Positions 2,664 through 59,584 of a stretch of 64,000 nt of DNA are shown here, one piece after another (positions within the stretch are counted from its first letter, which is position 1; each line of letters opens with the position of its first letter). The translations under genes were made by a program, and so were the position numbers. The notes beneath the pieces were generated by a model. That model worked only from the letters and a program-made list of their open reading frames with translations, made no database searches and had not been told where the DNA came from. Source of the stretch: Escherichia coli (GTDB taxonomy: Bacteria; Pseudomonadota; Gammaproteobacteria; Enterobacterales; Enterobacteriaceae). The stretch lies in the NCBI RefSeq assembly GCF_044324875.1, contig NZ_CP172185.1; one strand, given 5' to 3'.

Positions 2664-3896
2664 TTATGCGACGGGGTCTATTTCCCAGCCAGTGCGGCAA
2701 TCAGTAAAGAGGCCTTGCGGGCAGCGTCCTAATGTCACCCGCGTTGCCTGCTGCCAGTTAGCGAAATCAGTAATCGCCTGACGTAACCCTTTTTGCAGCG
2801 TTGTCGTTGGTTTAATGCCTTCCTGTAACCACAGAGAGATAACTTCAAGGATGCCTGTCTGGCGATGCATTTTGGCATCCATTCGCCCAACTAATTGCCC
2901 ACGATGTAATAACGGCAGAACAAAATAGCCATACTGGCGTTTCGGCGCTGGGGTATAGCACTCCAGCCGGTAGCTAAAATCAAAAAGCTGCTCTGCGCGT
3001 TTACGATCCCAGACAACAGGATCAAAAGGCGAAAGTACCGCGCTGTGCGTTGCAGTGAGCTTTCCGGCCAGCGCACGCTCGAGTAGCGGCAGCAAATCAG
3101 CATGCAGCCAAATATTGCCCAATTTTTCAACATGCACAGCAATGATTTGCCGCTGTTCAGCCCTCGCTTCGCGCCACGCTGCCAGTGCCGGACGTTTCAG
3201 CCGATAGTAATCTGCCAGCCACTGTTCGCGGAATATTCCCAGGCTACGCGCACTGTTATCCAGCATGATGATTTCTGCTTCTGTTTGCGAAACGAGATCG
3301 CGCTCATCATCCCAGTCAGGCATGACACGGTAGGTTAAATCATAAACGCGCTGGAAGTTGCGCCGTTCAATCACCATCACTTTCCCGGCAGTAAATAAAC
3401 CTTCCAGATGCCGTTTATGCGGCTTCCATTCCCACCAGCCGCTTGCACCTTTACGAGGATGCTCAAAATCGGCTGAACGTACCGGCCCCTTATCATGAAT
3501 ATGCTGAATTAACTGTGCAATTTCCGCCTCATGTTCCTGCATCCAGGCGTCATTGTATTTCCAGCCCATTTTTTCAGGTGCCAGCATGCGGTGGCGAATA
3601 AGACGAAAGTCGCTACGCGGCATAAAGCAGGCTTCATGCGCCCAGTATTCCATTAATTCGCCACGCGCCAGAGACTCATCCAGCCACTGGGCAGGATAAT
3701 TTCCCAGACGACTGAAAAGCACCAGATATGGACTACGGGCAACAATATTAATGGTATCGATTTGCAGCAAGGACATGCGGGAGATCGTTGCCGGAATATC
3801 CTCCAACGATGCTCGACGGCGGGGTTTGTTTAACAGGCCTTGCGCGGCGAGGTGAAGATTACGCGCATCAGCAAGAGAGAGGTGCGGCAGCGACAT
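2664..3896 (-). CDS. ycaQ: Winged-helix DNA-binding protein YcaQ (410 aa)
   Basis: 410-aa ORF in conserved position between lpxK and ycaR. Confidence 0.9.
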   Translation of the reverse strand: MSLPHLSLADARNLHLAAQGLLNKPRRRASLEDIPATISRMSLLQIDTINIVARSPYLVLFSRLGNYPAQWLDESLARGELMEYWAHEACFMPRSDFRLIRHRMLAPEKMGWKYNDAWMQEHEAEIAQLIQHIHDKGPVRSADFEHPRKGASGWWEWKPHKRHLEGLFTAGKVMVIERRNFQRVYDLTYRVMPDWDDERDLVSQTEAEIIMLDNSARSLGIFREQWLADYYRLKRPALAAWREARAEQRQIIAVHVEKLGNIWLHADLLPLLERALAGKLTATHSAVLSPFDPVVWDRKRAEQLFDFSYRLECYTPAPKRQYGYFVLPLLHRGQLVGRMDAKMHRQTGILEVISLWLQEGIKPTTTLQKGLRQAITDFANWQQATRVTLGRCPQGLFTDCRTGWEIDPVA

Positions 3897-31041: not shown

Positions 31042-31153
31042 AGGGAGACAAAAAAAGCGCCCGCAGGAGATTTAACGGTACTTACTCCTCTTGCTGATTT
31101 CCTTATTTTTCAATAAGTAAACAAAAACAAGGGGAGCAAATTATCACAAATAA

Positions 31154-32158
31154 TTACTGGTCGATGGACAGTTTATGGACACTTTCAGCCAGCGGATTAA
31201 AGCTGATCGCATCCTGTAAAAAGTCCGGTGAAAAATGCGCATACGTCATCGTTTGCTGAATCGTGGCGTGACCCAGGATCCTCTGCAACGTGACGATGTT
31301 CCCGCCGTTCATCATGAAATGCGTGGCGAACGTGTGCCGCATGACATGCGTGGCCTGCCCTTTGGGTAAGTCGGGCTTCACCTCCTGAAGGATCTCCCTG
31401 AAACTGAGATAATCAACCTGATATAACAGGCCGGTCCGGCGGGTTTTAATTAACGGCACAACGGAATCAGCTACAGGAACCGAGCGCGATTTCCCGTTCT
31501 TTGTGTTAAAGAACGTCACCCTGTTACCCACGATGTGTTCCCCGCGAAGCGTTGACGCCTCTTTCCATCTGGCCCCGGTCGAAAGGCACAGAATGGCAAT
31601 GCGTCGTGCATCACCCTCAAGCCGTTTCAGAAGGCGATCAATCTCGTCATCTGAAAGAAAGGCCATTTCTGTATTCTGAACCTTGAGTTTACGTATTCCG
31701 CGCACAGGGTTTTCGTTATGATAAACCTCCGCGTCAATTAACAACGAAAACATCGCAGATAAGGCGCACAGGTCGCGATTGATACTGGACGGCATCAGTC
31801 CCGCCTGCAACTTATCCGAGCGATACTCAATCACGAATTTTCGTGTCATCTGGCTGGCGCGCGGGTCCCCCATTTCACGTATCACCTTCTCCAGTCTGGT
31901 TCTGTAGGTATCACCATATGCCTGATTACGACCATCAAGCATCCACCACACCTCAATCAGTTCTGATAACCGCCGTTGATCGGCGGGCCTTGCCTGCCAC
32001 GGGTTATTGTGGAAATTCTGAAGAACGTATCTTTCGAATTCCTGCGCCTTTGATTTCAGGGTGAAAATCTTACGAATCCGCCTTCCTCCCGCCCCCTGAG
32101 GCCTTACATCAACCTGATAACGTCCGTCTTTGAGTTGCTTAATCGACATGATCAGCAC
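31154..32158 (-). CDS. int: Phage tyrosine integrase (P2 Int-like)
   Basis: 334 aa; conserved ILCLSTGARW...ATHVMRHTFATHFMMNGG...LQRILGH...YAHF (R, H-x-x-R, Y catalytic residues). Confidence 0.93.
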   Translation of the reverse strand: MLIMSIKQLKDGRYQVDVRPQGAGGRRIRKIFTLKSKAQEFERYVLQNFHNNPWQARPADQRRLSELIEVWWMLDGRNQAYGDTYRTRLEKVIREMGDPRASQMTRKFVIEYRSDKLQAGLMPSSINRDLCALSAMFSLLIDAEVYHNENPVRGIRKLKVQNTEMAFLSDDEIDRLLKRLEGDARRIAILCLSTGARWKEASTLRGEHIVGNRVTFFNTKNGKSRSVPVADSVVPLIKTRRTGLLYQVDYLSFREILQEVKPDLPKGQATHVMRHTFATHFMMNGGNIVTLQRILGHATIQQTMTYAHFSPDFLQDAISFNPLAESVHKLSIDQ

Positions 32159-34474: not shown

Positions 34475-34768
34475 ATGCTTAATAATAAAAAAAACCGAAT
34501 CATTGATAACAGTGAACAGGTCAACAAAATAATCGAAGGCACAAACAAATTAATTAAGAAAAAAAACAAACTAAGCCGTGAATTAATGGAACATCCGGAA
34601 GAAATATTATTAGCCATGATGCACCAGACAGAAGCGATAGCCATCGCCCTTGCCGTGCAGGCGCTTTCTGAGTTCCGGGAAGAAAACATCAGGCTGGCTC
34701 AGGAGCTGAAAAACCTCAGACGTCAGCTTCAGAGCACTGAGGCTGGCACGTCATCACGAATACACTGA
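34475..34768 (+). CDS. Hypothetical Lys-rich protein (97 aa) in AT-rich island
   Basis: AAGGAG SD; AT-rich codon usage unlike flanking phage DNA. Confidence 0.55.
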   Translation: MLNNKKNRIIDNSEQVNKIIEGTNKLIKKKNKLSRELMEHPEEILLAMMHQTEAIAIALAVQALSEFREENIRLAQELKNLRRQLQSTEAGTSSRIH

Positions 34769-40681: not shown

Positions 40682-40761
40682 ATGAACAGGAAACAGAAGC
40701 AGGAACTGAAAGGCTTCTTACGTAAAGAAATTGCCAGGCTGGAAGATGTGGAATCTCAGTC
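40682..40761 (+). pseudogene. 5' fragment of small phage gene interrupted by IS21-family element
   Basis: MNRKQKQELKGFLRKEIARLEDVESQS... continues in frame at 43407 once the IS and one copy of the target duplication are removed. Confidence 0.8.
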
Positions 40762-40860
40762 TGCGTATTCCGCTCTATTCGATCACGGATTGGCATCGAA
40801 GTCCGATCAGCGATTCGCATCCATTCGATCAACCGGGAACTTAACTTTTTCTACCGCTTT

Positions 40861-41616
40861 TTAACGCGTTTTTTCGCTGCTTTCCACTACCGGGGGATTT
40901 TTCCTCAGTGACTCTCCCTGAAGGACCACTCGGTGTGAGTTATGTACCAGTCTGTCCAGGATGGCATCTGCTGTTGTTGGGTTCTCCATCAGACCATGCC
41001 ATTTATCTACCGGGAACTGGCTTACCACTATCGTGCTGCTTTGTCCGTAACGATCCTCTATGAGCTCCAGAAGGTCATTACACTGGGCGTTACTTAACTG
41101 TTCCAGCCCCAGATCGTCCAGGATTAGAACCTGTATTTTTTGCAACTGTTTCAGATATTTCAGCCAGCTGCCATCAACACGTCCCTGAGCCAGTTGTTCC
41201 AGTAATCGCCCGGTTCTACAGTACCGGACGCTGTGTTTCTGTCGACATGCCTGTTCGCCCAGCGCATTGGCTATCCAGCTCTTGCCACATCCTGTCGGAC
41301 CGGTTATCAGCAGGTTTTTCCTGTGGGTTATGTAGTGGCCGTTCAGCAGTTCTCTCATCTGTTCAGCCCGCAGACCTCTTGAGGCCGGATAGCGCAGCCC
41401 TTCCGGTGTTGCCTGGTATTTCAGGCCGGCATTTTTTCTCAACCGTGCCACACGGCTGTTTTCCCTGCTCAGAAGCTCGTCATCAACCAGCAGCGTCAGC
41501 CTTTCCTCGAACGACAGTTCGTCGTAGGTCTGAGGCGTTTCCCGCTGCCGTATCAGGCTCCCGGCCATCGCCGGGAGTTTCAGTTGGGTCAGTTTGTTTA
41601 ACAGGTTATCACTCAT
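40861..41616 (-). CDS. istB: IS21-family helper ATPase IstB
   Basis: Start MSDNLLNKL; Walker A GPTGCGKS; 251 aa. Confidence 0.93.
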   Translation of the reverse strand: MSDNLLNKLTQLKLPAMAGSLIRQRETPQTYDELSFEERLTLLVDDELLSRENSRVARLRKNAGLKYQATPEGLRYPASRGLRAEQMRELLNGHYITHRKNLLITGPTGCGKSWIANALGEQACRQKHSVRYCRTGRLLEQLAQGRVDGSWLKYLKQLQKIQVLILDDLGLEQLSNAQCNDLLELIEDRYGQSSTIVVSQFPVDKWHGLMENPTTADAILDRLVHNSHRVVLQGESLRKNPPVVESSEKTR

Positions 41617-41632
41617 ACTGTTGTTCCTTCTG

Positions 41633-43168
41633 TCAGTGGTAGTAGCCCGGACCACGCAGGTTTTCATGCTCTGAAGCATATGCCGGATGTTGTTCGCCCT
41701 GGCGGGATAATGGAAGCTCCAGGTTCTCCCGATGGTGACGCAGCAGATTGTCGATAAAGCGTCTGTCAGGGGCGTTATAGTGCAGGGCAACGTAACAGGC
41801 CTTTTCCAGCCGTTCCGGGCCGTATTTTTTCTGAAGTGCCAGCAGCCCCAGAACTGCACGATAAGCCAGTTCCGGATGGGGTTTTGCCTTCAGCATGGAT
41901 TCAACCACCCGGCCTGTGGACGGGCCCGTACGTTTTCCCTGCTCGATCAGGCGTTCCGGTGTCCATGTCCCGTGCTGCCGGTGGCGCTCTGGCATGTGAA
42001 GCGGATTGGTTGTGTGTTTATATTCATGTGTGCTGCGCGGATGTTGCGCCACACACTGCCCCTTGTGCCAGAGCTGTACCACCGACTGCCCCGCCTTCAG
42101 TGACAGACGCTGACCGACCAGTTCGTGTGGAACGGAGTACCAGTGACGGGCATATTCAACGTGGTAGTCAGGGCCAACCTTCACAGCTTTGTATTCCGTG
42201 TATTCATAAGGTGCCAGAGGCAGCGGAGAGAGTGCTGGCGCATCCAGTATGCGGAAGCGTTCTGCACGGGTTTGATTGCCGTACCCCTTCATTGGCCGGT
42301 TATTCATGTCTGTCAGTAACTCCCTAAGGCGCGCATTCAGCGCCCTGAGCGTGTGGAAGGTTTCATTACGGATGCGGGCAAGAAGCCATCGTTCAACGAT
42401 GAGGACGCCGTTTTCTGCTTTTGGTTTATCTTTAGGTTTGCGTGGTCGGGCCGGGATGATAACCGTGCCATAGTGCTCAGCCAGTGCCTGATAACTGTCG
42501 TTGATGACAGGCTCATATCGATCGGCCTTTTTCACTGCGCTTCTGAGGTTATCGGGGATGAGCAGCTTCGGTACGCCGCCCAGGAAGGTCAGGCAACGGC
42601 TGTGGGCATTTAACCATGACATCATGTCCTGACCTTCGCACGCTTCAACGTAGGTATAGTTGGACGCCCCCATTACGGCCACGAAGATTGCCACGCGGCG
42701 TATCTCACCGGTGTCCGGATTAATAACAGGAACCGTAGGACCACAGAAGTCGATAAAAAGCTTTTCGCCGGCACGATGCTCCTGGCGCATGGAGAGACGT
42801 CGCGTTTTTTTCCACTCCCGGTAGCAACGGCAGAAGTGCGAGTATCCCATCGCTTTGTTACCCGCCTGTGCCTTGTATTCCATCCACAACAGTTGCCGCG
42901 TCACACCTGGTTTTCTCATTTCCGTATCGAAGTACAACATGTCAGGCATTACAAGCTCTGATGCAAAGGTGTCTTTGGGCGGAAAAATGAGTTTCTCCAG
43001 CGTGTCATGGGATATATCAGCAGGTAATGGCCATGACAGAGAAGAGGCTTTGAAGCGGGCAAGAACCTCAAAAACGGTTGAGGCGCTGATGTGTAACGTC
43101 AGTCCGATACAACGGTTAGTCAGCTTCTTGTCGAACTTGAGCTGAAGGATCTTAAAACAGGTTTCCAT
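41633..43168 (-). CDS. istA: IS21-family transposase IstA
   Basis: Start METCFKILQ with AGGAG SD; DDE integrase core region; 511 aa. Confidence 0.92.
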   Translation of the reverse strand: METCFKILQLKFDKKLTNRCIGLTLHISASTVFEVLARFKASSLSWPLPADISHDTLEKLIFPPKDTFASELVMPDMLYFDTEMRKPGVTRQLLWMEYKAQAGNKAMGYSHFCRCYREWKKTRRLSMRQEHRAGEKLFIDFCGPTVPVINPDTGEIRRVAIFVAVMGASNYTYVEACEGQDMMSWLNAHSRCLTFLGGVPKLLIPDNLRSAVKKADRYEPVINDSYQALAEHYGTVIIPARPRKPKDKPKAENGVLIVERWLLARIRNETFHTLRALNARLRELLTDMNNRPMKGYGNQTRAERFRILDAPALSPLPLAPYEYTEYKAVKVGPDYHVEYARHWYSVPHELVGQRLSLKAGQSVVQLWHKGQCVAQHPRSTHEYKHTTNPLHMPERHRQHGTWTPERLIEQGKRTGPSTGRVVESMLKAKPHPELAYRAVLGLLALQKKYGPERLEKACYVALHYNAPDRRFIDNLLRHHRENLELPLSRQGEQHPAYASEHENLRGPGYYH

Positions 43169-43406
43169 AGTGCTCCTGGATTTTCTCTTTCTGGACATTG
43201 ACGTCTCCACTGGTTTAAACACGGCAATGGAGACTGTGGTGAAAAGAGTTAATTCCCGGAGTGACTGGCAGGATGCCAATCAATGATCGGAAGCATGCCA
43301 AATCGTGATCGATTGTGATGCCAAACTGTGATCGGAGATGGATGCCAAATCATGATCGATTCGAATGCCAAACTGCGATCGATTCAGATGCCATTTTGCA
43401 TCAGTC

Positions 43407-43641
43407 ATCAGATATTCCATTCGGAATGGATATCAACGACGCCTGTATGCTCCAGGTATACCGCATAGCTCAGGCTGCACTACAGGCAAAACCGTCAGAT
43501 GGACTGGTTAGAGCAGTACGTTTCTATGAACTGGTAAAGCGTGAGAATCCGCCAGTCGAAACCGGAGCATGGCAAGACGCTGTTGACTGGGTGCTCAAAG
43601 AGGCTTGTCAGGTTGTAAACACTGGCATCAAAGGAGACTGA
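43407..43641 (+). pseudogene. 3' fragment of the IS-interrupted phage gene
   Basis: In-frame continuation SDIPFGMDINDACMLQVYRIAQ...; reconstructed intact ORF about 104 aa. Confidence 0.8.
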
Positions 43642-43642
43642 T

Positions 43643-43852
43643 ATGGCTATTGCCGCAAGTTACACCATGCATCTCTATTGTGATTGTCGCCAGTGTACAA
43701 ATGGTAAATATCAAACGCCAGACTTCGGTGAATATATCGGTACGTCATGGACTGGCTGTGCAAAAGAGGCGCGTAAGGATGGCTGGCGAATAAGCAAAGA
43801 CAAAACTCGTGCTTTTGCGCCCGGGCATAAAGTTTTGAGGATTAACAAATGA
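43643..43852 (+). CDS. Small Cys-rich (zinc-ribbon-like) protein, 69 aa
   Basis: AAGGAG SD; CxC-x2-C plus distal Cys. Confidence 0.5.
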   Translation: MAIAASYTMHLYCDCRQCTNGKYQTPDFGEYIGTSWTGCAKEARKDGWRISKDKTRAFAPGHKVLRINK

Positions 43853-44250
43853 CCACTATAACCAAAGAGCGACTACTGACAATCAGGCAGTGGCGCGAAA
43901 CATACGGACCTGGTAGCAACGTTGTACTGCCAGCCGAAGAAGCGGAAAAACTGGCACGGATTGCTTTGGCATCGCTGGAAGCAAAACCAATAGGTGCTTT
44001 CCACATTGCAGAACAGCAGGTCGATGGCACAAGTGACTACATCAAGGATGGGGAGTACCGCTTGCTGACATCTGAAGAACAAAAGATAGCCCAACTTTTA
44101 GGCGATGCATGGAACCTGTATTTTACATTGCCAGTTGAGCATCCAATGGGTAGAGATGAATTTTGCCGGGCAATTCATCATTGCCAAAATATGGTGTTGG
44201 CACGCCCTGCCATCAGGGCGCTGGCCAGTAAGGGGCAAGGCTATAAATAG
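43849..44250 (+). CDS. Hypothetical phage cargo protein (133 aa)
   Basis: ATGA overlap with previous ORF; GAGGA SD. Confidence 0.55.
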   Translation: MTTITKERLLTIRQWRETYGPGSNVVLPAEEAEKLARIALASLEAKPIGAFHIAEQQVDGTSDYIKDGEYRLLTSEEQKIAQLLGDAWNLYFTLPVEHPMGRDEFCRAIHHCQNMVLARPAIRALASKGQGYK

Positions 44251-44257
44251 ATGAGCA

Positions 44258-44284
44258 AAACGCCCTCCTCCAGGGCGTTTATTT
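44258..44284 (+). terminator. Rho-independent terminator after cargo operon
   Basis: ACGCCCT-CCTCC-AGGGCGT followed by TTATTT. Confidence 0.55.
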
Positions 44285-44287
44285 CAA

Positions 44288-44314
44288 TGCACAATAGTGC
44301 ACAAATTTGCACAA
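44288..44314 (+). repeat. Three tandem 10-bp-phased TGCACAA repeats (candidate operator)
   Basis: TGCACAAtag TGCACAAatt TGCACAAttt at 44288, 44298, 44308. Confidence 0.6.
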
Positions 44315-44738
44315 TTTTTTTGAACGACTTTTTGCCCTTCCGGCCCGTGTGGCGTCTGGATCCGTCGGGGATCCGTGCGTGCACGAAAAAAGGCCTTTTT
44401 CTGCGCGCAGGTGACGGGGGAACAGCCCGCGTTTCAGGGGGTAAATAGCATTCCCTGAACGATGTTGCAGTGACACAACAGAATGGCTGTATTTCTCACG
44501 CTGAGCGTGAAAAAGACGTAAGGGCTTTTGATTTGATGGGGTGAAAGATAAGGCCGTCAAAATCGCACTGAGGCAGCGAGAATATGTCGTCAGAGTTGCG
44601 GGGTTGCGTAAGCATCCGCCCGGCGATGATGGCTACAGGGCTGGAGATGTTGTGAAATTATCTGAAGGAATAACCAGCTTGCAGGAGAACCCGGGCAAAG
44701 TCAGAATAGCGGCAGGCATCAACTCAAAAGAGGATAAT

Positions 44739-45245
44739 GTCATGAGCCACTTTAATGATTTATGCCAGATCAATCGTGAAGCTGAAGAAAAACGCGCTGA
44801 GGCAGCTCAAATTTTGCGGGATGAAGCGGCAAGGCTGATTGATTTCTATGAAGAATGGCTGGGGCTTCCATCCATGTACTGGGAAGACGATGATGGCGAC
44901 CTGCACCGCTACGTGGAGACAGGCTTGCCATGTAAGACAGCGGCGGATTTTAGTCCTCTTTCAGTCCACAATATCGCATCTGCACCAGACAATATTTTCC
45001 GCATGGCCGTGCGAACCTGGGTTAAGTCATCTGACAGCAGCTACCCGGTAAGCGTGGTTATTGCACTTGAATTATATTCAGTAGATGCGGAACGGGTGTC
45101 TCTGAGAGTCCGGGTGGAAGACGATATTTCTGTTCGCGTATTTATCAATAAACCCAGCGAAGAAGCCTGGGGCGATGTTGTTATGCACATGAAAAAGCAC
45201 ATCGCTAATCACCTGAAAAAGCGAGCGCCATCAGCACTTCGTTAA
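44739..45245 (+). CDS. Hypothetical protein (168 aa; possible GTG-extended 234-aa form from 44541)
   Basis: AGAGGA SD before ATG 44739; preceded by ~490-bp structured leader. Confidence 0.5.
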   Translation, partial: VMSHFNDLCQINREAEEKRAEAAQILRDEAARLIDFYEEWLGLPSMYWEDDDGDLHRYVETGLPCKTAADFSPLSVHNIASAPDNIFRMAVRTWVKSSDSSYPVSVVIALELYSVDAERVSLRVRVEDDISVRVFINKPSEEAWGDVVMHMKKHIANHLKKRAPSALR

Positions 45246-45260
45246 GCAGAGCTGGAGAGT

Positions 45261-45285
45261 CGGGGCATAAATTTTTTATGCCCCG
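45261..45285. terminator. Bidirectional hairpin terminator between 168-aa gene and portal gene
   Basis: Perfect palindrome CGGGGCATAAA-TTT-TTTATGCCCCG. Confidence 0.6.
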
Positions 45286-45311
45286 GCGAAGCAGCAGACA
45301 AGCGAAGCGCG

Positions 45312-46367
45312 TCAGGATATGGGCTGGGTGTCTAACAGTGCGTAAGGGTTAAAACGGATCACCTCTTCGCCCAGCCAGTCGTTGACGTGTTTCATTGCTT
45401 CCATGACGGGCATCAGTTCGTTAATGGCAAACACACGGGCTGCCTTCTCCACATCCCCGAATGACCCCTTCTCACCCGGCATGGCCCCCATCAGCTGCGG
45501 CGGTACACGGTGCACGGACAGCACATCATCACGCGATGCAGCCTTGACGTTCATGAACTCATCCTTTGCGGTGATTTGCTGAAACGGCAAAATCTGTACG
45601 CCATCCTTACCACCTCCCGCCGCGTGGATGAGCAGATTTTTAAACGCCCCGCCACCACGCGCGCTTTGCAGTGTTTCCCGCAGTTTTTCCATGCTTTCAC
45701 GGTCAACCTGCGCCGCACCGATGTAGACAATACAGCCCGCGTGTGAGCCGTTATCGTAGTAGAGCTTGCGGAAGATATCGGCGGAATGTGACAGGCTGGC
45801 AGACAGCAGGCCGCCCAGGTAATCCGGCATCCCGTAAATCTCCTGGTTGATATCAGGATTCATCAGGTGGCATATCGTCCCCTCACGAAAGCGGTACTCT
45901 TCCTGTCCTTCCTGTATATACCACCATGATTTCATATCGCTGCCACGTCGCATGTATTTCGCCAGCGCCCGGCGCAGGGCCAGCGGTTCGCCAAGCATGT
46001 TGCGCCGCAGCTCAAGACAGGCATTACCGAACACAAACCAGTCCATCGCCACCCCGGCGAACTCCTGGCGGGACAGCAGAGGATGTGGAATATAGCAGCC
46101 CAGCAGCACATTACGTTTGAAGCTGAGCGCCGACTGGTGCCAGGACGTCTGGCGGGCAGCCCGTGCCAGTCCGTACCAGTCAACGGGCGTTTCAAACCAC
46201 CGCCCGTTGTCGGCGCAGTACATGCTGTCCAGCAGGTCGGCCCCTGACAGCCGGTAAGGTCCTTCAAACGTGAAGGCACTCAGTGTCGGGTCGCTTCGCA
46301 GGGAATCCGCAAGGCTGCCCTGCGCTGCGCGGGCGTTCGTACGTCGTTGTTTATTTTTTCTGCTCAT
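45312..46367 (-). CDS. Phage portal protein (P2 gpQ-like)
   Basis: 351 aa; position and sequence type of P2 Q, adjacent to terminase. Confidence 0.9.
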   Translation of the reverse strand: MSRKNKQRRTNARAAQGSLADSLRSDPTLSAFTFEGPYRLSGADLLDSMYCADNGRWFETPVDWYGLARAARQTSWHQSALSFKRNVLLGCYIPHPLLSRQEFAGVAMDWFVFGNACLELRRNMLGEPLALRRALAKYMRRGSDMKSWWYIQEGQEEYRFREGTICHLMNPDINQEIYGMPDYLGGLLSASLSHSADIFRKLYYDNGSHAGCIVYIGAAQVDRESMEKLRETLQSARGGGAFKNLLIHAAGGGKDGVQILPFQQITAKDEFMNVKAASRDDVLSVHRVPPQLMGAMPGEKGSFGDVEKAARVFAINELMPVMEAMKHVNDWLGEEVIRFNPYALLDTQPIS

Positions 46368-48118
46368 CAGAACTCCGTAACACTGAAGGGGGCGGCATCA
46401 TGTTCACCGCCGACAGGTTCGTTGATAACGGCCAGCATGGTGGCCCATGCAAGATCGCCATGGCTTACGCCTCTTGCGCGATCTGTTTCGTAGGTGATAA
46501 ATCCGGCCTGCGTTTTTGTTTTGCGTACCGCGTTAAAGGCGCTCACCAGTTCGCGCTCGCTGCGGTCGTACTCCCACCGCCCGGCGCGCATGAGCTGCAG
46601 CATCTTCAGAACCAGCGTGCGCTTTGATGACAGGGTGAAGGTGTAGGGAATGGCTGCCGGAAAAAAGCGCTTCACAATCTGATACACCGCATCCCCGTGA
46701 CCGCCGGTTACGTCAATACCGATATGCTCAACGTTATAGCGAAAGGTGAACTCTTCAATCACCTTCGCCTGCGCCTCAAACTCCAGCCCCTGCACCCGCC
46801 GCGTCTCCACGGTGCGAAAACGCCCGCCCGGTACGGCTGGCGGCACCACCACGACAACCGCCCCGCTGTCACCGTTCCCGCTACTGCCGTTGGCGTCGTA
46901 CCCAATCCACACAGGGCGGTTCCCCATCGGACGCGGTGCAAACGGCTTCCAGTCCGGCCACTCGTCGTATCCGTCAACACCGCAGCCAATCAGGATATTC
47001 AGGTTAAATGCCGATTCCCCTTCGCGAGCAAATTCACACATGTAGAGATTGCGGAACTCGTCTTCAGTGTTATTGCGCCGGATTTTGTCAATGTTGGTTA
47101 ACGTCCATCCCTGACTGACCACATCTTCCAGCGTCACAATTTGCCGCCAGATATAGTCAGGACAGATAAGGCCGTTATGAAGCGCATTCCAGCTCACATC
47201 AAAATGCTGACGTTTATGAGTACGAAGCCCTTCATTCCAGTGATCGCCGTTCCAGTATGCATACGCCTCATGTGTTTCACTTGATGGCGTGGAAAAATAG
47301 GTACACCGCAAACCATCCAGCGTTGCCATAGCAGCAGCCACCTTGCGCAGCTCTGCGAAACGCCCCGTCCAGAAAAACTCATCAAAATACAGATTCCCTG
47401 TGTACGCTTGCGCGGTGGCCGCAGAAGTGCCGAGAAAATGCAGCTCTGCACCGTTGGAGAGGATGACTTTATCGCCCCCTTTCAGTTCCACATCAACTTC
47501 AGATGCAGCCTTCTGAATAATGCTTTTAAACTGGAGCGCCTGACGACGAGACGCAGACAAAAAAATCTGGTTACGCTGGTAAGGTTGTGCCACATCGTCA
47601 CGCAGCGCCATCAGCAGCGCTTCCTGCGCAAAATACCAGGTCGCCCCAATCTGGCGGGATTTCAGGATCATCCTGTCAGTAATTCCGGCACGCTCACAGG
47701 CACCGATAGCATCAAGCCATTTGCGCTGGTGTCCGGCCAGCCTGTCGGTAATTTTTTCCCGCAGCGCCGCGATCTGTTCCGGCGTGAAATGATTTTTGCG
47801 TTTTTTCGCCCGGCCTTTCTTTCCTGTTGCCGTCTCATCCGGCAGACCGTCATGCAGCTTTTTAAGCTGACGGGTCAGCAAATCAATTTCCTTAAAGTCC
47901 CCGCCTGTTTTATTCTGTTTTTCCGTGAGCTGAATGAGTCGCGCATCCATGGACTGCGTGACACGCTGAACCGGGGGCGTCTCATCCCACTGGTCGCGTT
48001 TTTTCCACGAATGGATCGTGTTCTGGTTGATACCCATAAGGCGGGAAATTTCCGCAACAGGGTAACCCTGCCAGTACAGCTGGCGTGCCCGCTGGCGAAC
48101 AAATGTATCCTGAATCAT
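46367..48118 (-). CDS. Terminase large (ATPase) subunit (P2 gpP-like)
   Basis: 583 aa; N-terminal HTH, ATPase/nuclease-type body; divergent from scaffold gene. Confidence 0.9.
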   Translation of the reverse strand: MIQDTFVRQRARQLYWQGYPVAEISRLMGINQNTIHSWKKRDQWDETPPVQRVTQSMDARLIQLTEKQNKTGGDFKEIDLLTRQLKKLHDGLPDETATGKKGRAKKRKNHFTPEQIAALREKITDRLAGHQRKWLDAIGACERAGITDRMILKSRQIGATWYFAQEALLMALRDDVAQPYQRNQIFLSASRRQALQFKSIIQKAASEVDVELKGGDKVILSNGAELHFLGTSAATAQAYTGNLYFDEFFWTGRFAELRKVAAAMATLDGLRCTYFSTPSSETHEAYAYWNGDHWNEGLRTHKRQHFDVSWNALHNGLICPDYIWRQIVTLEDVVSQGWTLTNIDKIRRNNTEDEFRNLYMCEFAREGESAFNLNILIGCGVDGYDEWPDWKPFAPRPMGNRPVWIGYDANGSSGNGDSGAVVVVVPPAVPGGRFRTVETRRVQGLEFEAQAKVIEEFTFRYNVEHIGIDVTGGHGDAVYQIVKRFFPAAIPYTFTLSSKRTLVLKMLQLMRAGRWEYDRSERELVSAFNAVRKTKTQAGFITYETDRARGVSHGDLAWATMLAVINEPVGGEHDAAPFSVTEF

Positions 48119-48180
48119 TTCTCCCCCTCATGTGATTCAGGCAGTTTACTCACCCCTTACAGGCCTCCTGCCATGCCCGG

Positions 48181-48204
48181 TGTTGTCGGCATTCGCTTAC
48201 AACA
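48181..48204 (+). promoter_or_regulatory. Late-promoter activator site of Ogr/Delta type in divergent P-O intergenic region
   Basis: TGTTGT-N12-ACAACA dyad (contains TGT-N12-ACA) ~70 bp upstream of scaffold gene ATG. Confidence 0.55.
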
Positions 48205-48272
48205 AACGCACTTTGTCTGTCCCTGCCCCGTTTTGCCATCATGAGACAAACGATCATCACGAGGGCCCGACA

Positions 48273-49109
48273 ATGCCTGAACAGAAAAAAACATCCCGTA
48301 AAACATTCCGCGTGGCCGTTTCCGGTCCCACCGCAGACGGTCGCGAAATCAGCGCCGCAGATTTGCGCGCGGCGGCCAGTAACTTCAACCCTGAGATTTA
48401 CGGCGCACGCGTGAACGTGGAGCACTGGCTTTCACCGGTTCCGTCCAGTGAATTTTCCGCCATGGGTGATGTGACGGCACTGAGCACAGAAGAAATCACC
48501 GAAGGTCCGCTGGTCGGTCGTACTGCGCTGTATGCGGAAATCGAACCCACCGACCGCATGAAAAATCTGGTCTCCCGGGGTAAGAAAATTTACTCCAGTA
48601 TTGAGCTGGCACGAAATTTCACCCCTACGGGCACCCCGTATCTTATTGGCCTTGCCATGACAGACACCCCGGCAAGCATCGGCACGGAGCGTCTTCAGTT
48701 CGCCCTGCAGCAGCGCCGTTCGGTCATGACCTTCAATAATCAGCAGACGGAAGCACCGATGTTCTCTGACGCCATTGAGGCTGAAGTGATCGAACTGACG
48801 GAGCGCCGCAGCGAGGAAGGTGCGCAGTGGTTTAACCGCGTGATGAACATGATTGGGCGAGGACGCAGGGCTGACGACACCCGGTTCTCCCGCATTCATG
48901 ACGCCGTTGAGGGGATAGCCTCATCGCATGCCGACCTTCTCGACCGCTTCAGTGCACTGGAATCGCGCCATCAGGCAGACAGACAGAAAGTCGCCACCCT
49001 GTCCACTGAGCTGGCAGAGCTGAAAAACAGACTGCGCGGACTGGACGCTGATCAGCAAAGTCGTTTTACGGCAACCGGCGGGCAGTCCAGACAACTGGCT
49101 GACTACTGA
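48273..49109 (+). CDS. Capsid scaffolding protein (P2 gpO-like)
   Basis: Start MPEQKKTSRKTFRVAVSG with GAGGG SD; 278 aa. Confidence 0.88.
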   Translation: MPEQKKTSRKTFRVAVSGPTADGREISAADLRAAASNFNPEIYGARVNVEHWLSPVPSSEFSAMGDVTALSTEEITEGPLVGRTALYAEIEPTDRMKNLVSRGKKIYSSIELARNFTPTGTPYLIGLAMTDTPASIGTERLQFALQQRRSVMTFNNQQTEAPMFSDAIEAEVIELTERRSEEGAQWFNRVMNMIGRGRRADDTRFSRIHDAVEGIASSHADLLDRFSALESRHQADRQKVATLSTELAELKNRLRGLDADQQSRFTATGGQSRQLADY

Positions 49110-49137
49110 CAGAAATAACCACAAGAGGTGATAACCG

Positions 49138-50277
49138 ATGAATCGGATCATGAGCGATGCCGCGCGGGCCGAGCTTTTTGCTTACCAGGCACAACAGGCG
49201 GAGATGAATAACATCACGATATCTGCGCTCTCCTCCCGCTTTTCGGTACAGCCGGCAGTGCAGCAGAGATTTGAAAACGCATCAAAGGAAAGCCATGATT
49301 TTCTTCAGAAAGCCAACAGCATTGGTGTGACAGAGCAGAAAGGTGAAAAGGTACTCCTGGACACCACCGGGCCGGTTGCGCGCACGAACAGCAGTTATGA
49401 CGGTACAAATCGTCGTAACCCGCTGAATGTGGTGGACATGAAAGCGCGACGCTATGAGTGCGAGCAGGTGAACTACGACACCTTCATCTCCTACCCTCAG
49501 CTTGACATGTGGGCCGGACACCCTGACTTCCAGCTGCGTGTGAGTCGCCAGATTGCCAGACAGGTGGCACTTGATCGCATCATGACAGGTTTTAACGGTA
49601 CGCACCATGCGGAAGTCTCGGATATAAAAAAACACCCGCGACTTGAGGACGTCAATAAGGGGTGGCTGCAGGATATCAGGGACCAGGCCCCGCAACGCGT
49701 CATGAAAGACGTGATGCTGACTGCGCGCAATATGGACAATTCGGTGGCATACACAGGCAGATACGCCAATCCCGATGCACTGGTCCAGGATGCACGCTCA
49801 TCCCTGCTTGACGAATGGCACAAGGACGCAGACGACCTCGTTGTCATCATGGGGCGAAACCTCTTTAACTCCCTGCGCCTGCCGGTCCTGAACAGTATCA
49901 GCATGCAGAATGCGAATGCCGAACTGCTTGCCGGACAGCTCATTGTGTCAACGCGGACCATTGGCGGCCTTGATGTGTACCTTGCGCCATTTTTCCCGGC
50001 TCAGTCAATGCTCATCACCTCATTCAGCAACCTGTCGGTTTACTGGCAGAAGGGGTCCATGCGTCGTCTCATGAAGGATGAGCCCGAATACAACCGTATC
50101 GCCATCTATCAGTCCGTTAACGACTGCTATGTGGTTGAGGACCATGGTAAGTGCGCACTGATTGAGAATATCAGCTTTGCCGAATATGACCATGACGCGC
50201 CGGACTGGTACCGGGACGCCACAAAAGCACTGTCAGCGCAGGCTGAAGACAGGGATGCAGGGGAAGAGGAGGATTAA
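49138..50277 (+). CDS. Major capsid protein (P2 gpN-like)
   Basis: 379 aa; AGAGGTGA SD; conserved NRYECEQVNYD...QLDMWAG...DFQLR region. Confidence 0.92.
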   Translation: MNRIMSDAARAELFAYQAQQAEMNNITISALSSRFSVQPAVQQRFENASKESHDFLQKANSIGVTEQKGEKVLLDTTGPVARTNSSYDGTNRRNPLNVVDMKARRYECEQVNYDTFISYPQLDMWAGHPDFQLRVSRQIARQVALDRIMTGFNGTHHAEVSDIKKHPRLEDVNKGWLQDIRDQAPQRVMKDVMLTARNMDNSVAYTGRYANPDALVQDARSSLLDEWHKDADDLVVIMGRNLFNSLRLPVLNSISMQNANAELLAGQLIVSTRTIGGLDVYLAPFFPAQSMLITSFSNLSVYWQKGSMRRLMKDEPEYNRIAIYQSVNDCYVVEDHGKCALIENISFAEYDHDAPDWYRDATKALSAQAEDRDAGEEED

Positions 50278-53086: not shown

Positions 53087-53231
53087 ACACCCCACATGGG
53101 GAAATATCGGGATATGGAGCGACAGCCTCCTGGATGCACTGGAAACCTGCAACGCAGACAAACAGGCCATTGAGGCGCTGGAGCGCCGGAGACTCAACCG
53201 ACAGAACGGAGGGGGACATGCTGAAAAGTAA
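52917..53231 (+). CDS. o-spanin lipoprotein (LysC/Rz1-like), embedded/overlapping with i-spanin in alternate frame
   Basis: GTG start with AAGGAGAAG SD; lipobox LLTGC; Pro-rich mature region. Confidence 0.6.
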   Translation: MNSFAKLLRRMSAPALFLTTVLLTGCANTRNAPLPAPSFRFIPAGLTTGTRPPPFPEHPTWGNIGIWSDSLLDALETCNADKQAIEALERRRLNRQNGGGHAEK

Positions 53232-53682
53232 ATCCCTGAGCACACACATGAGTACAGCGTGCCGGTGGTGCAGGGCCAACCCGGAAAAGTTCACCGTGTT
53301 CATTGAACGTGGCGGGATAGAGACCACCGGCGAGACGCCGACGTTCGTGTACAACTACCGGCTGGTGATGTTCGTGATGGACTACACGGGCGATCTGGAC
53401 AACCTGACGCTTCCACTGATTGTCTGGCTGGCAGAGAACCAGCCGCAGTTGCTGCTTAATCCTGAGCGCAACAACGATATTCAGTTCACGGCGGCCATTA
53501 ACGACGACGACAGCGCGGACGTGCTGTTTGAGCTGCCGTTACGTGAACGCGTGCGCGTCACCCGCAGGGATGACGGCACCCTCATGACAGAACATCTACC
53601 GGAGCCGAAATCACGCATCCCGCAGGACGGCGACTGGTCACACATTCTGGAGGATGTGACGTGGAACATTGTCACCGGATAA
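53218..53682 (+). CDS. Tail completion protein (P2 gpR-like)
   Basis: Start ATG with GGAGGGGGA SD; 154 aa. Confidence 0.8.
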   Translation: MLKSKSLSTHMSTACRWCRANPEKFTVFIERGGIETTGETPTFVYNYRLVMFVMDYTGDLDNLTLPLIVWLAENQPQLLLNPERNNDIQFTAAINDDDSADVLFELPLRERVRVTRRDDGTLMTEHLPEPKSRIPQDGDWSHILEDVTWNIVTG

Positions 53683-53697
53683 CACGCGGAGAATGTT

Positions 53698-56738: not shown

Positions 56739-58973
56739 ATGAGCACGAGAAAATTCAGAACCCTTATCACCGACATCGGGCTGGCAAAGCTGGCCGCAAC
56801 AACGGCGCCTGGCGGTAGACCTGTACGCCTTACGCACATGGCTGTAGGGGACGGCAATGGAGAGCTTCGTCAGCCGCAGAAAAACCAGACATCGCTTTAC
56901 AATGAGGTTTGGCGCCAGTCTGTCAACCGCGTCTTCACCGACCCGGAGAACCCGAACCGCCTCATCGCCGAACTGGTCATTCCTCCTGAAACCGGCGGAT
57001 TCTGGGTGCGTGAAATTGGTGTGTTTGATGATACAGGTACAATGATTGCAGTAGGAAATACCGCTGAAAGTTACAAGCCCACCAGAGAGGAAGGTTCAGG
57101 GCGGGCGCAGATATTCCGTGCAGTAATCACCGTCACCTCCGACGCCGTGGTGGAACTGGTCATGGACACAACAACAATTCTGCCGACCACGGACTACATT
57201 GATGAGAAAATGGCGGAACACGCACGTTCCCGTAACCACCCTGACGCGACACTGACAGAAAAAGGATTCACCCAACTGAGCAGCGCCACAAACAGCACCT
57301 CTGAAACACTGGCCGCCACACCGAAGGCCGTCAAGGCTGCATATGACCTTGCAGCCGGTAAAGCACCCGCCAGCCACACCCACCCGTGGAATCAGATAAC
57401 TGGTGTGCCATCAGCCTCGCTGACGGCAAAAGGCACCGTACAGCTGAGCAGTGCCACAAACAGTGAGTCAGAGACTGAGGCGGCCACCCCCAAAGCGGTT
57501 AAAGCCTTACACGATATGGTGACGAGCAAGTATACAGGACAGGATGCAACCACCGGACGCAAAGGCATCGTACAGCTGAGCAGCGCCACAAACAGCAATT
57601 CCGAAACACTGGCGGCCACACCGAAGGCAGTAAGTGATGCACTGAGCATGGCGTTCGTGAAGCCAACAACATCCCTGGGGGAAACAGACCTGAACACTCT
57701 GGGGCGTAAGGAAGACGCGGGAGATTATTACCAGCAGAGTGACTCAGGTGCGAGAACAGACAGAAACTATCCTGTAGAGAAGGCAGGAGAGTTACGCATC
57801 CGTGTTGGTGCATGGGGATTCTGCCAGCATGAATACACGAGCTGGGATCCGCCACGAAAATTTATCAGGACAGTTACCGGAAACTTTAACGGTAACGGCC
57901 CATGGTCAGAGTGGGTGGAGGTGACAAACACAGATGCAACAACTGGACGCAAAGGCATCGTACAGCTGAGCAGCGATACAAACAGCAATTCCGAAACGCT
58001 GGCGGCCACACCAAGAGCCGTCAAGGCTGCATATGACCTTGCAGCCGGTAAAGCACCCGCCAGCCACACCCACCCGTGGAATCAGATAACAGGTGTGCCA
58101 TCAGCCTCGCTGACGGCAAAAGGCACCGTACAGCTGAGCAGTGCCACAAACAGTGAGTCAGAGACTGAGGCCGCCACCCCCAAAGCGGTTAAAGCCTTAC
58201 ACGATATGCTGACGAGCAAGTATACAGGACAGGATGCAACCACCGGACGCAAAGGCATCGTACAGCTAAGCAGCGCCACAAACAGCAATTCCGAAACGCT
58301 GGCGGCCACACCAAAAGCTGTTAAAGCTGCGTATGACCTTGCCAACAGCAAAGCCTCGGCAGCCCACACTCATCGCTGGGCTCAGATCACAGACGCCCCT
58401 GTTTTTTCGTCTGTTGCCCGCGTCATCATGGGTAAACAAAGCATAAAAGATATTCTTGATTACTTTGGTTTAGGAGAAGGCTCGACGCTGCCAGTTGGCG
58501 TACCCGTTCCGTGGCCTTCGTCAAGACCACCTGAGGGGTGGTTACAGTGCAACGGTGCCGCATTCACGCGTACAAAATACCCAAAACTGGCGGTGGCCTA
58601 CCCTGACCTCAGGCTACCAGATTTGCGCGGGGAATTTATTCGTGGATGGGATGACCTGCGAATGATTGACAGGGGACGCTTATTGTTATCCACACAGGAA
58701 GCAACATATATTTGTACCGCCATACAGGCGTACCACGGCGTAGCGGGAGGTGCAGATATTCAGGCAGGGATTTCATTTGCATCACATGATAACGACATCA
58801 TAAACATAACCCCTGATCAACCCAGAACCGGTAACGGCATCCTGTACGGCACAAAACCAGTTGACAGATGGGCAATAGCCAGAGCCGGTAAGCTGGTGAG
58901 TAATGAAAAAGACAGATGGATAGCGATCAGACCGCGCAATATCGCTTTTAATTATATTGTGAGGGCAGTTTAA
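56739..58973 (+). CDS. Tail fibre protein (P2 gpH-like) with internal repeat array
   Basis: 744 aa; repeated TGRKGIVQLSSATNSNSETLAATPKAVKAAYDLA units; C-terminal receptor-binding region. Confidence 0.9.
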   Translation: MSTRKFRTLITDIGLAKLAATTAPGGRPVRLTHMAVGDGNGELRQPQKNQTSLYNEVWRQSVNRVFTDPENPNRLIAELVIPPETGGFWVREIGVFDDTGTMIAVGNTAESYKPTREEGSGRAQIFRAVITVTSDAVVELVMDTTTILPTTDYIDEKMAEHARSRNHPDATLTEKGFTQLSSATNSTSETLAATPKAVKAAYDLAAGKAPASHTHPWNQITGVPSASLTAKGTVQLSSATNSESETEAATPKAVKALHDMVTSKYTGQDATTGRKGIVQLSSATNSNSETLAATPKAVSDALSMAFVKPTTSLGETDLNTLGRKEDAGDYYQQSDSGARTDRNYPVEKAGELRIRVGAWGFCQHEYTSWDPPRKFIRTVTGNFNGNGPWSEWVEVTNTDATTGRKGIVQLSSDTNSNSETLAATPRAVKAAYDLAAGKAPASHTHPWNQITGVPSASLTAKGTVQLSSATNSESETEAATPKAVKALHDMLTSKYTGQDATTGRKGIVQLSSATNSNSETLAATPKAVKAAYDLANSKASAAHTHRWAQITDAPVFSSVARVIMGKQSIKDILDYFGLGEGSTLPVGVPVPWPSSRPPEGWLQCNGAAFTRTKYPKLAVAYPDLRLPDLRGEFIRGWDDLRMIDRGRLLLSTQEATYICTAIQAYHGVAGGADIQAGISFASHDNDIINITPDQPRTGNGILYGTKPVDRWAIARAGKLVSNEKDRWIAIRPRNIAFNYIVRAV
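57328..57625 (+). repeat. Copy 1 of ~300-bp near-identical direct repeat inside tail-fibre gene
   Basis: Near-identical to 58018-58315 (offset 690 bp) with five single-base differences noted in the aligned core. Confidence 0.8.
58018..58315 (+). repeat. Copy 2 of ~300-bp direct repeat inside tail-fibre gene
   Basis: See copy 1. Confidence 0.8.
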
Positions 58974-59584
58974 TGAGTAACACTGCAGTTCTGGATGAAA
59001 ACGGTATCGCCACTTTCGCAGGCGATATCACTGTATATCACTATGATGAGGAAACCCGGGAATACACCTCATCCTCTGTGGAGTATCTCGCCCTGGGGGT
59101 GGGTACCCCGGCACATTCATGCGCCGATGCCCCGCCAGAGGCAATGCCGGGTTACGTGATTTGCCGGACGTCCACGCTGGACGGGTGGGAGTATGTCCCC
59201 GATCATCGTGGAGAGACGGTATACAGCACAGAGAACGGTAATCCGGTCCAGATTACCCAACCAGGTGACTACCCGGAAGGGACAACGACAAAACAGCCTG
59301 CCACACCATGGGATACCTGGAACGGTGAGGCGTGGGTAACCGATACAGAACGGCAGCAAGCCGAAGAGCTGGAGGTTGCCAGACAGCAACGCAAGGAACG
59401 GGTGGATCAGGCGATGAAGTCCATCGACCTCATCAACCTTAAGTTGCGGGCAGGTCGCAGTCTGACACCAGAAGAAACGGCAAAACTGAATGCCGTGCTG
59501 GATTATATCGACGAGCTGAACGCACTGGATATCAGCACGGAGCCTGAAATAAGCTGGCCGGAAACACCACCAGAAATGGAATGA
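58973..59584 (+). CDS. Tail fibre assembly chaperone (P2 gpG-like)
   Basis: 203 aa; start overlaps H stop. Confidence 0.87.
   Translation: MSNTAVLDENGIATFAGDITVYHYDEETREYTSSSVEYLALGVGTPAHSCADAPPEAMPGYVICRTSTLDGWEYVPDHRGETVYSTENGNPVQITQPGDYPEGTTTKQPATPWDTWNGEAWVTDTERQQAEELEVARQQRKERVDQAMKSIDLINLKLRAGRSLTPEETAKLNAVLDYIDELNALDISTEPEISWPETPPEME

Follow-up and report, generated by a model that had tools for sequence, protein, structure and literature searches.

Genes and features of the prophage

The window, as we call the whole stretch of 64,000 nucleotides that was analyzed, is part of an Escherichia coli chromosome, and its left prophage junction, located beside dmsA, matches complete genomes at up to 99.0%. 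From the integrase gene to the end of the window, the DNA belongs to a P2-family, P88-like prophage, whose closest sequenced phages are P88 and other members of Xuanwuvirus. Comparison of the P88 proteins with the window (tblastn) gave a collinear map, which passes through the integrase, C, cox, and replication genes and then reaches Q and P on the minus strand (matches at 45315-46367 and 46370-48118, respectively; Table 1). Gene O heads a rightward string of late genes (O-N-M-L-X-lysis-R-S-V-W-J-I-H-G) that ends at about position 59584 and in which no strong plus-strand terminator was found. After G, the P88 map continues with U, T, E', and E on the minus strand up to the end of the window. 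Pfam matches also support the portal, P2 capsid, small terminase, GPL, GpR, and lysozyme assignments. All late genes in the window are full length and collinear with those of P88, and the tape measure gene, which RefSeq flags as a pseudogene in two near-identical prophages, is an open reading frame (ORF) of 1115 aa here. The window stops inside gene E, and the genes FII, FI, D, and ogr would lie beyond its end. Among the near-identical prophages, the one in E. coli NRZ14408 is 99.8% identical to positions 29561-64000 of the window apart from insertion sequences and occupies the same dmsA/serS site, and the one in SCU-115 has 99.6% identity in its late genes.

Genes P and O diverge from a 154-bp intergenic control region. 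The product of gene P, which opens the leftward late operon P-Q, has the Pfam domains Terminase_5, Terminase_6N, and Terminase_6C and shares 86% amino acid identity with the P88 large terminase. Its start codon is the complement of positions 48116-48118, and the C-rich block at its Shine-Dalgarno sequence is kept in close relatives. The product of gene O matches Phage_GPO (1e-87, 294 bits) and is 70% identical in amino acid sequence to P88 gpO; its ATG occupies positions 48273-48275. The original prediction, which was made from the letters of the window, had placed a late promoter region between divergent terminase and scaffold genes at 48119-48272, and both the ORFs and the Pfam assignments of gpP and gpO agree with that placement.

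Table 1. Positions of the genes and control elements discussed in the text, in window coordinates.
Feature	Position	Strand	Basis
Integrase gene	31184-32149	-	P88 tblastn map
IS21-family insertion sequence	40762-43395	-	TG...CA ends; Pfam
IstB, 332 aa	40864-41859	-	in IS21-family element
IstA, 548 aa	41636-43279	-	in IS21-family element
Gene for a protein of 234-236 aa	44541-45245	+	
Portal gene Q	45312-46367	-	P88 tblastn map, Pfam portal
Gene P, large terminase (ATPase) subunit, 583 aa	46367-48118	-	ORF, Pfam, P88 match
Divergent intergenic control region P/O, 154 bp	48119-48272	.	
Shine-Dalgarno sequence of P (minus-strand AGGGGGAG)	48121-48128	-	sequence read
Leftward promoter P_P, predicted -10 element (minus-strand TAAACT)	48143-48148	-	alignment with P2 TAGCCT
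Predicted late-activator site TGTTGT-N12-ACAACA	48181-48204	.	alignment with P2 and 186 sites, rarity, matrix score
Left half-site TGTTGT	48181-48186	.	
Core TGT-N12-ACA	48184-48201	.	
Spacer cggcattcgctt	48187-48198	.	
Right half-site ACAACA	48199-48204	.	
Weak -35-like element of P_O, TTGTCT	48213-48218	+	15-phage alignment
Predicted extended -10 element of P_O, TGcCATCAT (hexamer CATCAT, 48237-48242)	48234-48242	+	alignment with P2 GAAACT
Shine-Dalgarno sequence of O, GAGGG	48261-48265	+	sequence read
Gene O, capsid scaffold/protease, 278 aa	48273-49109	+	Pfam Phage_GPO, P88 match

Several other features of the prophage deserve mention. The IS21-family element is flanked by a 6-bp target duplication (TCAGTC, at 40756-40761 and 43396-43401) and splits the homolog of P88 gp20, a small gene that carries no function in its annotation and lies between the replication gene and a cos-like block. 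That noncoding block, at 44300-44620, is 90% identical to positions 10916-11232 of P88, compared to ~77% for its flanks, and is probably the cos (packaging) region. It includes a palindrome at 44463-44480 (TGTTGCAGTGACACAACA), for which P88 reads TGTCGCAGCGACACGACA. Two of the three differences between these sequences fall at the mirror positions 4 and 15 and preserve the dyad, which suggests a dimer-binding site or a hairpin; the palindrome bears no resemblance to an Ogr operator. We also considered the palindrome as a late promoter of the 234-aa gene downstream and rejected it: the T...A flanks (TTGT...ACAA) are missing, as is an xAxxxT hexamer at the expected +44, and the palindrome lies within the cos-like block.

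The gene for the 234-236-aa protein is located between the cos-like block and Q, with which it is convergent. Its product has no match in Pfam or PADLOC and is assigned only to phrog_5091 (unknown function). P88 has no intact counterpart, and only the first ~40 codons of the gene match the annotated 42-aa gp22. The gene may be cargo at a variable spot. In the NRZ14408 prophage, a different IS21-like element, ISEc12, is inserted within this gene at the window equivalent of ~44840.

Integration sites and tail fibers vary among near-identical prophages as well. The prophage resides at dmsA/serS in the window and in NRZ14408 and at rraA/zapB in SCU-115, and the integrase region (window positions 31053-32149) has 97% DNA identity to that of SCU-115; these differing locations may reflect alternative attachment sites or a small change in integrase specificity. 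The tail fiber gene H (56739-58973) contains internal repeats at 57273-58392, and residues ~170-300 of P88 gpH match four or more overlapping stretches of the window H. The number of repeat copies differs among near-identical prophages, with an H protein of 744 aa in some and of 626 aa in others.

A perfect inverted repeat in the middle of the P/O gap

The P/O gap reads exactly TGTTGT-N12-ACAACA at 48181-48204, as had been predicted. The center of the dyad, at 48192.5, is 74.5 bp from the start codon of P and 80.5 bp from that of O and is therefore in the middle of the gap. Its right end is 69 bp from the O ATG, which bears out the earlier estimate of about 70 bp. The perfect version of the repeat, with its 12 specified bases, occurs once in the 64 kb of the window, while 0.01 copies are expected (100 shuffles). 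Relaxed patterns are less discriminating. Allowing up to two mismatches yields 6 matches in the window (3.4 expected), and the five besides the dyad all lie away from late-gene starts. The bare core TGT-N12-ACA has 13 matches versus 16.9 expected and is uninformative by itself. Because the bare core occurs at chance level, the significance of the dyad rests on the extended repeat, its position, and its conservation.

We also scored the prophage with a matrix that was trained only on sites of P88 and Klebsiella phages, with the window site excluded. The dyad is the top match in the prophage (24.0 bits, compared to a maximum of 20.1 in 200 shuffles), and a site in the gap between genes FI and D of a near-identical prophage ranks second (16.0 bits).

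Two other roles for the dyad were examined and set aside. A structured RNA found no support from Rfam, which has no match in 43400-49200 at E<=1. A terminator or hairpin was rejected because there is no terminator-like site at the dyad or elsewhere in the gap and because the flanking genes diverge, leaving nothing to terminate there.

The position of the dyad is shared with annotated activator sites of P2-family phages

According to the literature, the consensus of P2 late promoters is TGT-N12-ACA (PMC3931495). To place the window dyad among known sites, we aligned the P-O gaps of 15 P2-family phages with hosts in ten genera, which include Escherichia, Klebsiella, Salmonella, Yersinia, Pseudomonas, Burkholderia, Ralstonia, Mannheimia, and Vibrio. 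The dyad shares columns with the activator sites annotated in P2 and 186, in agreement with the original prediction that it matches the P2-family late promoter element, and the alignment has the consensus GTTGT...ACAA. The spacer is 13 bases long in the Pseudomonas, Burkholderia, and Ralstonia phages of the alignment.

The P2 record (NC_001895) lists a single "activator binding site; pO, pP promoters" at 3057-3087 and annotated transcription starts at 3016 on the minus strand for the P operon and at 3127 on the plus strand for the O operon. The site itself is TGT-N12-CCA (3063-3080), and its center is 55.5 bp from both starts. The record of phage 186 (NC_001317) similarly has one site, "B protein; activation of pV and p12," at 3798-3817, between the homologs of P and O. 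Judged from these records and the alignment, a single central dyad for two back-to-back promoters is the norm in the P2 family.

The half-sites are not uniform. The left half-site varies among relatives of the prophage (TGTTcT in P88, aGgTcT in Kp4849-1), and the P2 sites are imperfect, with CCA or CAA where the consensus has ACA. Given this variation in the left half and the imperfect P2 sites, the rules of recognition are loose.

Two divergent promoters are predicted on either side of the dyad

A consensus scan of 47900-48500 detected no sigma-70 consensus promoter on either strand. The only sequences that could be placed as promoter elements, by alignment alone, are TTGTCT-N18-CATCAT on the right and TAAACT on the left. 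Both hexamers, CATCAT and TAAACT, were picked by alignment and are weak -10 matches. The lack of a sigma-70 promoter in the scan would fit dependence on an activator.

In P2, the -10 hexamers GAAACT (3115-3120) and TAGCCT (3023-3028, minus strand) each lie 7 nt upstream of the annotated start. With this spacing applied to the window, leftward transcription is predicted to begin near 48136 and rightward transcription near 48249. Each predicted start is 56.5 bp from the center of the dyad, compared to 55.5 bp for the annotated starts of P2, and the -10-like hexamers begin 44.5 bp from the center on both sides, compared to 43.5 bp in P2. The predicted leaders would be ~24 nt (rightward) and ~18 nt (leftward) long, each with a good ribosome-binding site.

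Conservation in the P-O gap was also examined at closer range, in an alignment of the window, P88, and two Klebsiella phages. To the right of the center, the invariant positions in these four sequences include the half-site ACAACAA, the TG of the -35-like TTG, and TGCnATnAT; to the left, they include AGnTT-AC, which gives TAAnCT on the minus strand. Across the 15 P2-family phages, the final G of the -35-like TTG is invariant and the middle T is at least 90% conserved, while the first T is neither. P2 has TGG at these positions (-35 to -33, counted from the start at 3127).

From the alignments and the annotation of P2 and 186, we consider it most likely that the one dyad serves both divergent promoters, P_P and P_O, and not the promoter of the scaffold gene alone.

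An activator gene and a second dyad in near-identical prophages

No Ogr-like ORF was detected in the window by tblastn with a P2 Ogr probe or by a six-frame scan for CxxC-N15-30-CxxC, and both tests were positive in P88. The activator gene is thus absent from the window, as the original prediction had stated, because the window ends inside gene E. Beyond the equivalent of this point, the prophages of NRZ14408 and SCU-115 both carry, 43 bp after D, a gene that RefSeq annotates as "ogr/Delta-like zinc finger family protein" (WP_029400762.1); in NRZ14408, it is ~3 kb past the equivalent of the window end. The encoded 83-aa Ogr homolog matches PF04606 Ogr_Delta with 52.4 bits (cutoff, 26.3) and contains cysteines C4, C7, C32, and C37. 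Its identity is 71% to an ORF of P88 and 32% to both P2 Ogr and 186 B.

The location of this gene is consistent in a wider sample. The gpU protein of the window is encoded on thousands of contigs, of which six were examined; all six have an 83-aa Ogr_Delta gene at the far end of the tail block, and it directly follows D wherever D was called. By extrapolation from the prophages with 99.6-99.8% identity, we infer that the source genome of the window carries the activator too. The presence of an Ogr/Delta gene just past the window end in those prophages lends support to the earlier proposal that the late regulatory circuitry is retained, and the search for an ogr-type activator in the rest of the prophage that accompanied the proposal had a positive outcome in the near-identical prophages.

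The P88 counterpart of the gene is unannotated: an 86-aa ORF after D, at 34476-34736 (+) of NC_026014, matches Ogr_Delta with 52.3 bits. Upstream of the ogr ATG in a near-identical prophage (L010), two TAAAAT hexamers are located 35-46 nt away, at the stop codon of D and between D and ogr, and a strong terminator-like hairpin is found 3' of ogr (L010 37453-37503 and 37872-37900). This layout resembles that in the P2 record, where ogr has promoter signals of its own and a shared terminator.

The tail block FI-FII-E-T-U is inverted relative to P2, and FI and D are therefore divergent; in the near-identical prophages, they diverge from a gap of 161 bp. A recurrence of the dyad at other late operons, which the original prediction had proposed to look for, was found here: the FI/D gap contains a second perfect TGTTGT-N12-ACAACA (L010 36280-36303; also in L007), with -10-like hexamers ~44 bp on either side. 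In NZ_CP158426, the genes FII, FI, D, and an intact ogr, together with this second dyad, are found within 3403404-3406753.

A motif GCGCGCG-TAATCT / TAATCTCACCCC is also present in the FI/D gap, on the plus strand and directly to the left of the dyad (P88 33222-33243; L010 36258-36275). A similar motif forms the predicted minus-strand -10 element of P_P (window 48140-48160), where its orientation is reversed and its spacing to the dyad is different. The motif in the FI/D gap could be a second promoter, perhaps for early expression of D and ogr, or a coincidence.

Mismatch scans and the matrix revealed no third operator above shuffle noise before R, S, or V. The best candidate, at 53694, scores 11-12 bits, compared to a mean shuffle maximum of 12-13 bits, and the gap before R (53087-53217) has no dyad. 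A core match at 53369-53386 is inside gene R, lacks the extended half-sites, and was treated as a chance match.

The clade therefore appears, from these scans, to use two such operators in all, located in the P/O and FI/D gaps. The simplest reading is that two bidirectional operators would drive four late transcription units, in a small rearrangement of the P2 plan. A stronger version of this idea, to which we give an even chance, is that the late regulon of P88-like (Xuanwuvirus-type) phages has been compressed onto two symmetric, bidirectional Ogr operators with four promoters and that a diverged activator reads the extended TGTTGT/ACAACA half-site. If the two-operator reading is true, the 11-kb O-to-G transcript would be made without a separate V promoter, and one arm of a late operator would be followed directly by D and ogr, resulting in positive feedback on the activator. 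Such an arrangement would be a modest rewiring of the textbook circuit and not a new mechanism.

The dyad as a probable operator of the late activator

We hypothesize that the dyad at 48181-48204 is the operator of the Ogr-type C4 zinc finger late activator of the prophage, and the combined evidence of position, conservation, and the activator gene in near-identical prophages makes this reading highly probable. The activator would be made in lytic growth and would bind the inverted repeat, probably as a dimer or by paired contacts with the half-sites, at an operator centered ~56 bp upstream of each of the two back-to-back promoters. When bound, it would recruit the host sigma-70 RNA polymerase to both. 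P_P would transcribe the terminase and portal genes (P and Q) to the left, and P_O would transcribe the genes to the right, starting with those for the scaffold (O), capsid (N), and small terminase (M). Because -35 elements are weak or absent at both promoters, P_P and P_O are expected to be silent without the activator. P2 Ogr contacts the alpha subunit of RNA polymerase, as is known from the rpoA109 (alpha L290H) literature, and dependence on the C-terminal domain of this subunit is a hallmark of P2-family late promoters. Ogr binding, the start points, the dependence on the activator, and a contact with the alpha subunit are what the sequence leads us to expect at this dyad.

Three alternative explanations were weighed against this hypothesis. 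First, the dyad could be a true Ogr operator by descent that is now a silent relic in a defective prophage, its activator having been lost or mutated or the prophage having been damaged by an insertion sequence. The prophage does contain the IS21-family element, the genes FII, FI, D, and ogr would be beyond the end of the window, which falls inside gene E, and the tape measure gene is flagged as a pseudogene in two near-identical prophages. However, all late genes in the window, including the 1115-aa tape measure ORF, are full length and collinear with P88, and the only gene interrupted by the insertion sequence is a small one, located between the replication gene and the cos region and without known function. 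In addition, the dyad is perfect, and the region 47900-48500 is found at an identity of at least 99% in 25 complete E. coli genomes, which argues for recent activity or purifying selection. We consider a silent relic unlikely.

Second, the dyad could bind another regulator, such as a host factor, Cox, the C repressor, or the N-terminal helix-turn-helix (HTH) domain of gpP, with no activation of the Ogr type. An HTH domain is indeed present at the N terminus of gpP (Terminase_5, HTH_23), and TGT-N12-ACA is not unique to Ogr, since PpsR and CrtJ, which are unrelated regulators, recognize the same motif. Those regulators, however, belong to photosynthetic bacteria and not to E. coli. Moreover, the site has the same aligned position as the annotated activator sites of P2 and 186, the motif recurs at late-gene promoters only and is absent from the early, immunity, and cos regions, and the prophage type encodes an Ogr_Delta protein. 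Binding of a different regulator is, in our assessment, very improbable.

Third, the reading of the palindrome as a functionless chance occurrence, which could draw on the chance-level frequency of the bare core and on the lack of enrichment of matches with up to two mismatches, is effectively refuted by the rarity of the perfect 12-base version and its location in the middle of a 154-bp gap, by the same aligned position being kept across 15 P2-family phages of several genera, by the perfect recurrence of the dyad in the one other gap of this prophage type from which late genes diverge, and by the top rank of the dyad under a matrix derived from other phages.

Occurrence and significance of the control region

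With the operator hypothesis preferred over these alternatives, the feature is, as judged by sequence comparison, a standard late promoter control region of the P2 family, here in an E. coli prophage of the P88-like type. At an identity of at least 99%, this region is present in 25 of 5426 complete E. coli genomes, and more distant versions were found in ~770 genomes. The mechanism is the textbook circuit of P2 and 186, is already known, and opens no new question. What seems to be added here is the dyad shared by P_P and P_O, the placement of the promoter cores, the activator and the second operator in near-identical prophages, and the two-operator organization of the clade.

The main value of these findings lies in annotation: they locate the switch for late genes in a prophage type common in E. 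coli, and they show that RefSeq does not annotate ogr in the type phage P88. They also have a bearing on satellites. P4-like satellite phages take over P2-family helpers via late-activator sites of this kind. Because such satellites exploit these sites, knowing the operator and its cognate activator helps to predict which prophages can act as P4-like helpers.

Comparison with known late-control systems

The closest system is that of P88 and the other Xuanwuvirus phages (Peduoviridae), with which the prophage shares gene order and ~77% nucleotide identity over the head genes. The inverted FI-FII-E-T-U tail block and an Ogr_Delta ORF after D are common to P88 and the prophage type. Unlike the window dyad, the P88 dyads have one or two mismatches each (TGTTcT-N12-ACAACA in the P/O gap and cGTTcT-N12-ACAACA in the FI/D gap). 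We found no published account of the late promoters of P88, whose paper is silent on ogr and on promoters, and no transcript, binding, or reporter data for any P88-like phage in the literature.

A similar arrangement has been described for Stenotrophomonas phage Smp131, whose P and O promoters, PP' and PO', have the same coordinates on opposite strands and use one element resembling TGT-N12-ACA; a CX2CX22CX4C Ogr-like protein was also noted in that phage (PMC3931495). Smp131 is distant in both host and sequence, and its promoters, like those described here, are predictions only (PMC3931495).

In phage 186, p12 and pV share one annotated activator site in front of the homologs of P and O, at the same aligned position as the window dyad. 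The 186 site reads TTGTGTGGGCGGTTGTCCAG, and its right half is degenerate, unlike that of the window site. The 186 B protein is 32% identical to the Ogr homolog of the prophage type, and the 186 tail operon has the P2 orientation, unlike that of the window prophage type.

The resemblance to P2 itself extends to several features: the dyad between divergent P and O genes, ~55-56 bp from each start (predicted starts in the window), weak -10-like elements ~44 bp on either side together with poor -35 elements, and, in the near-identical prophages, an Ogr-family zinc finger gene after the tail gene D. The differences are in the site, the activator, and the number of operators. In contrast to the imperfect TGT-N12-CCA of P2, the window site is a perfect 6+6 palindrome. 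The activator of the prophage type is 32% identical to P2 Ogr and longer (83 versus 72 aa), with 24 instead of 22 residues separating its cysteine pairs. Finally, the P2 record has further, separate activator sites for P_V and P_F and hence three sites for four promoters, whereas the prophage type has only one other site, in the FI/D gap, which would be bidirectional too.
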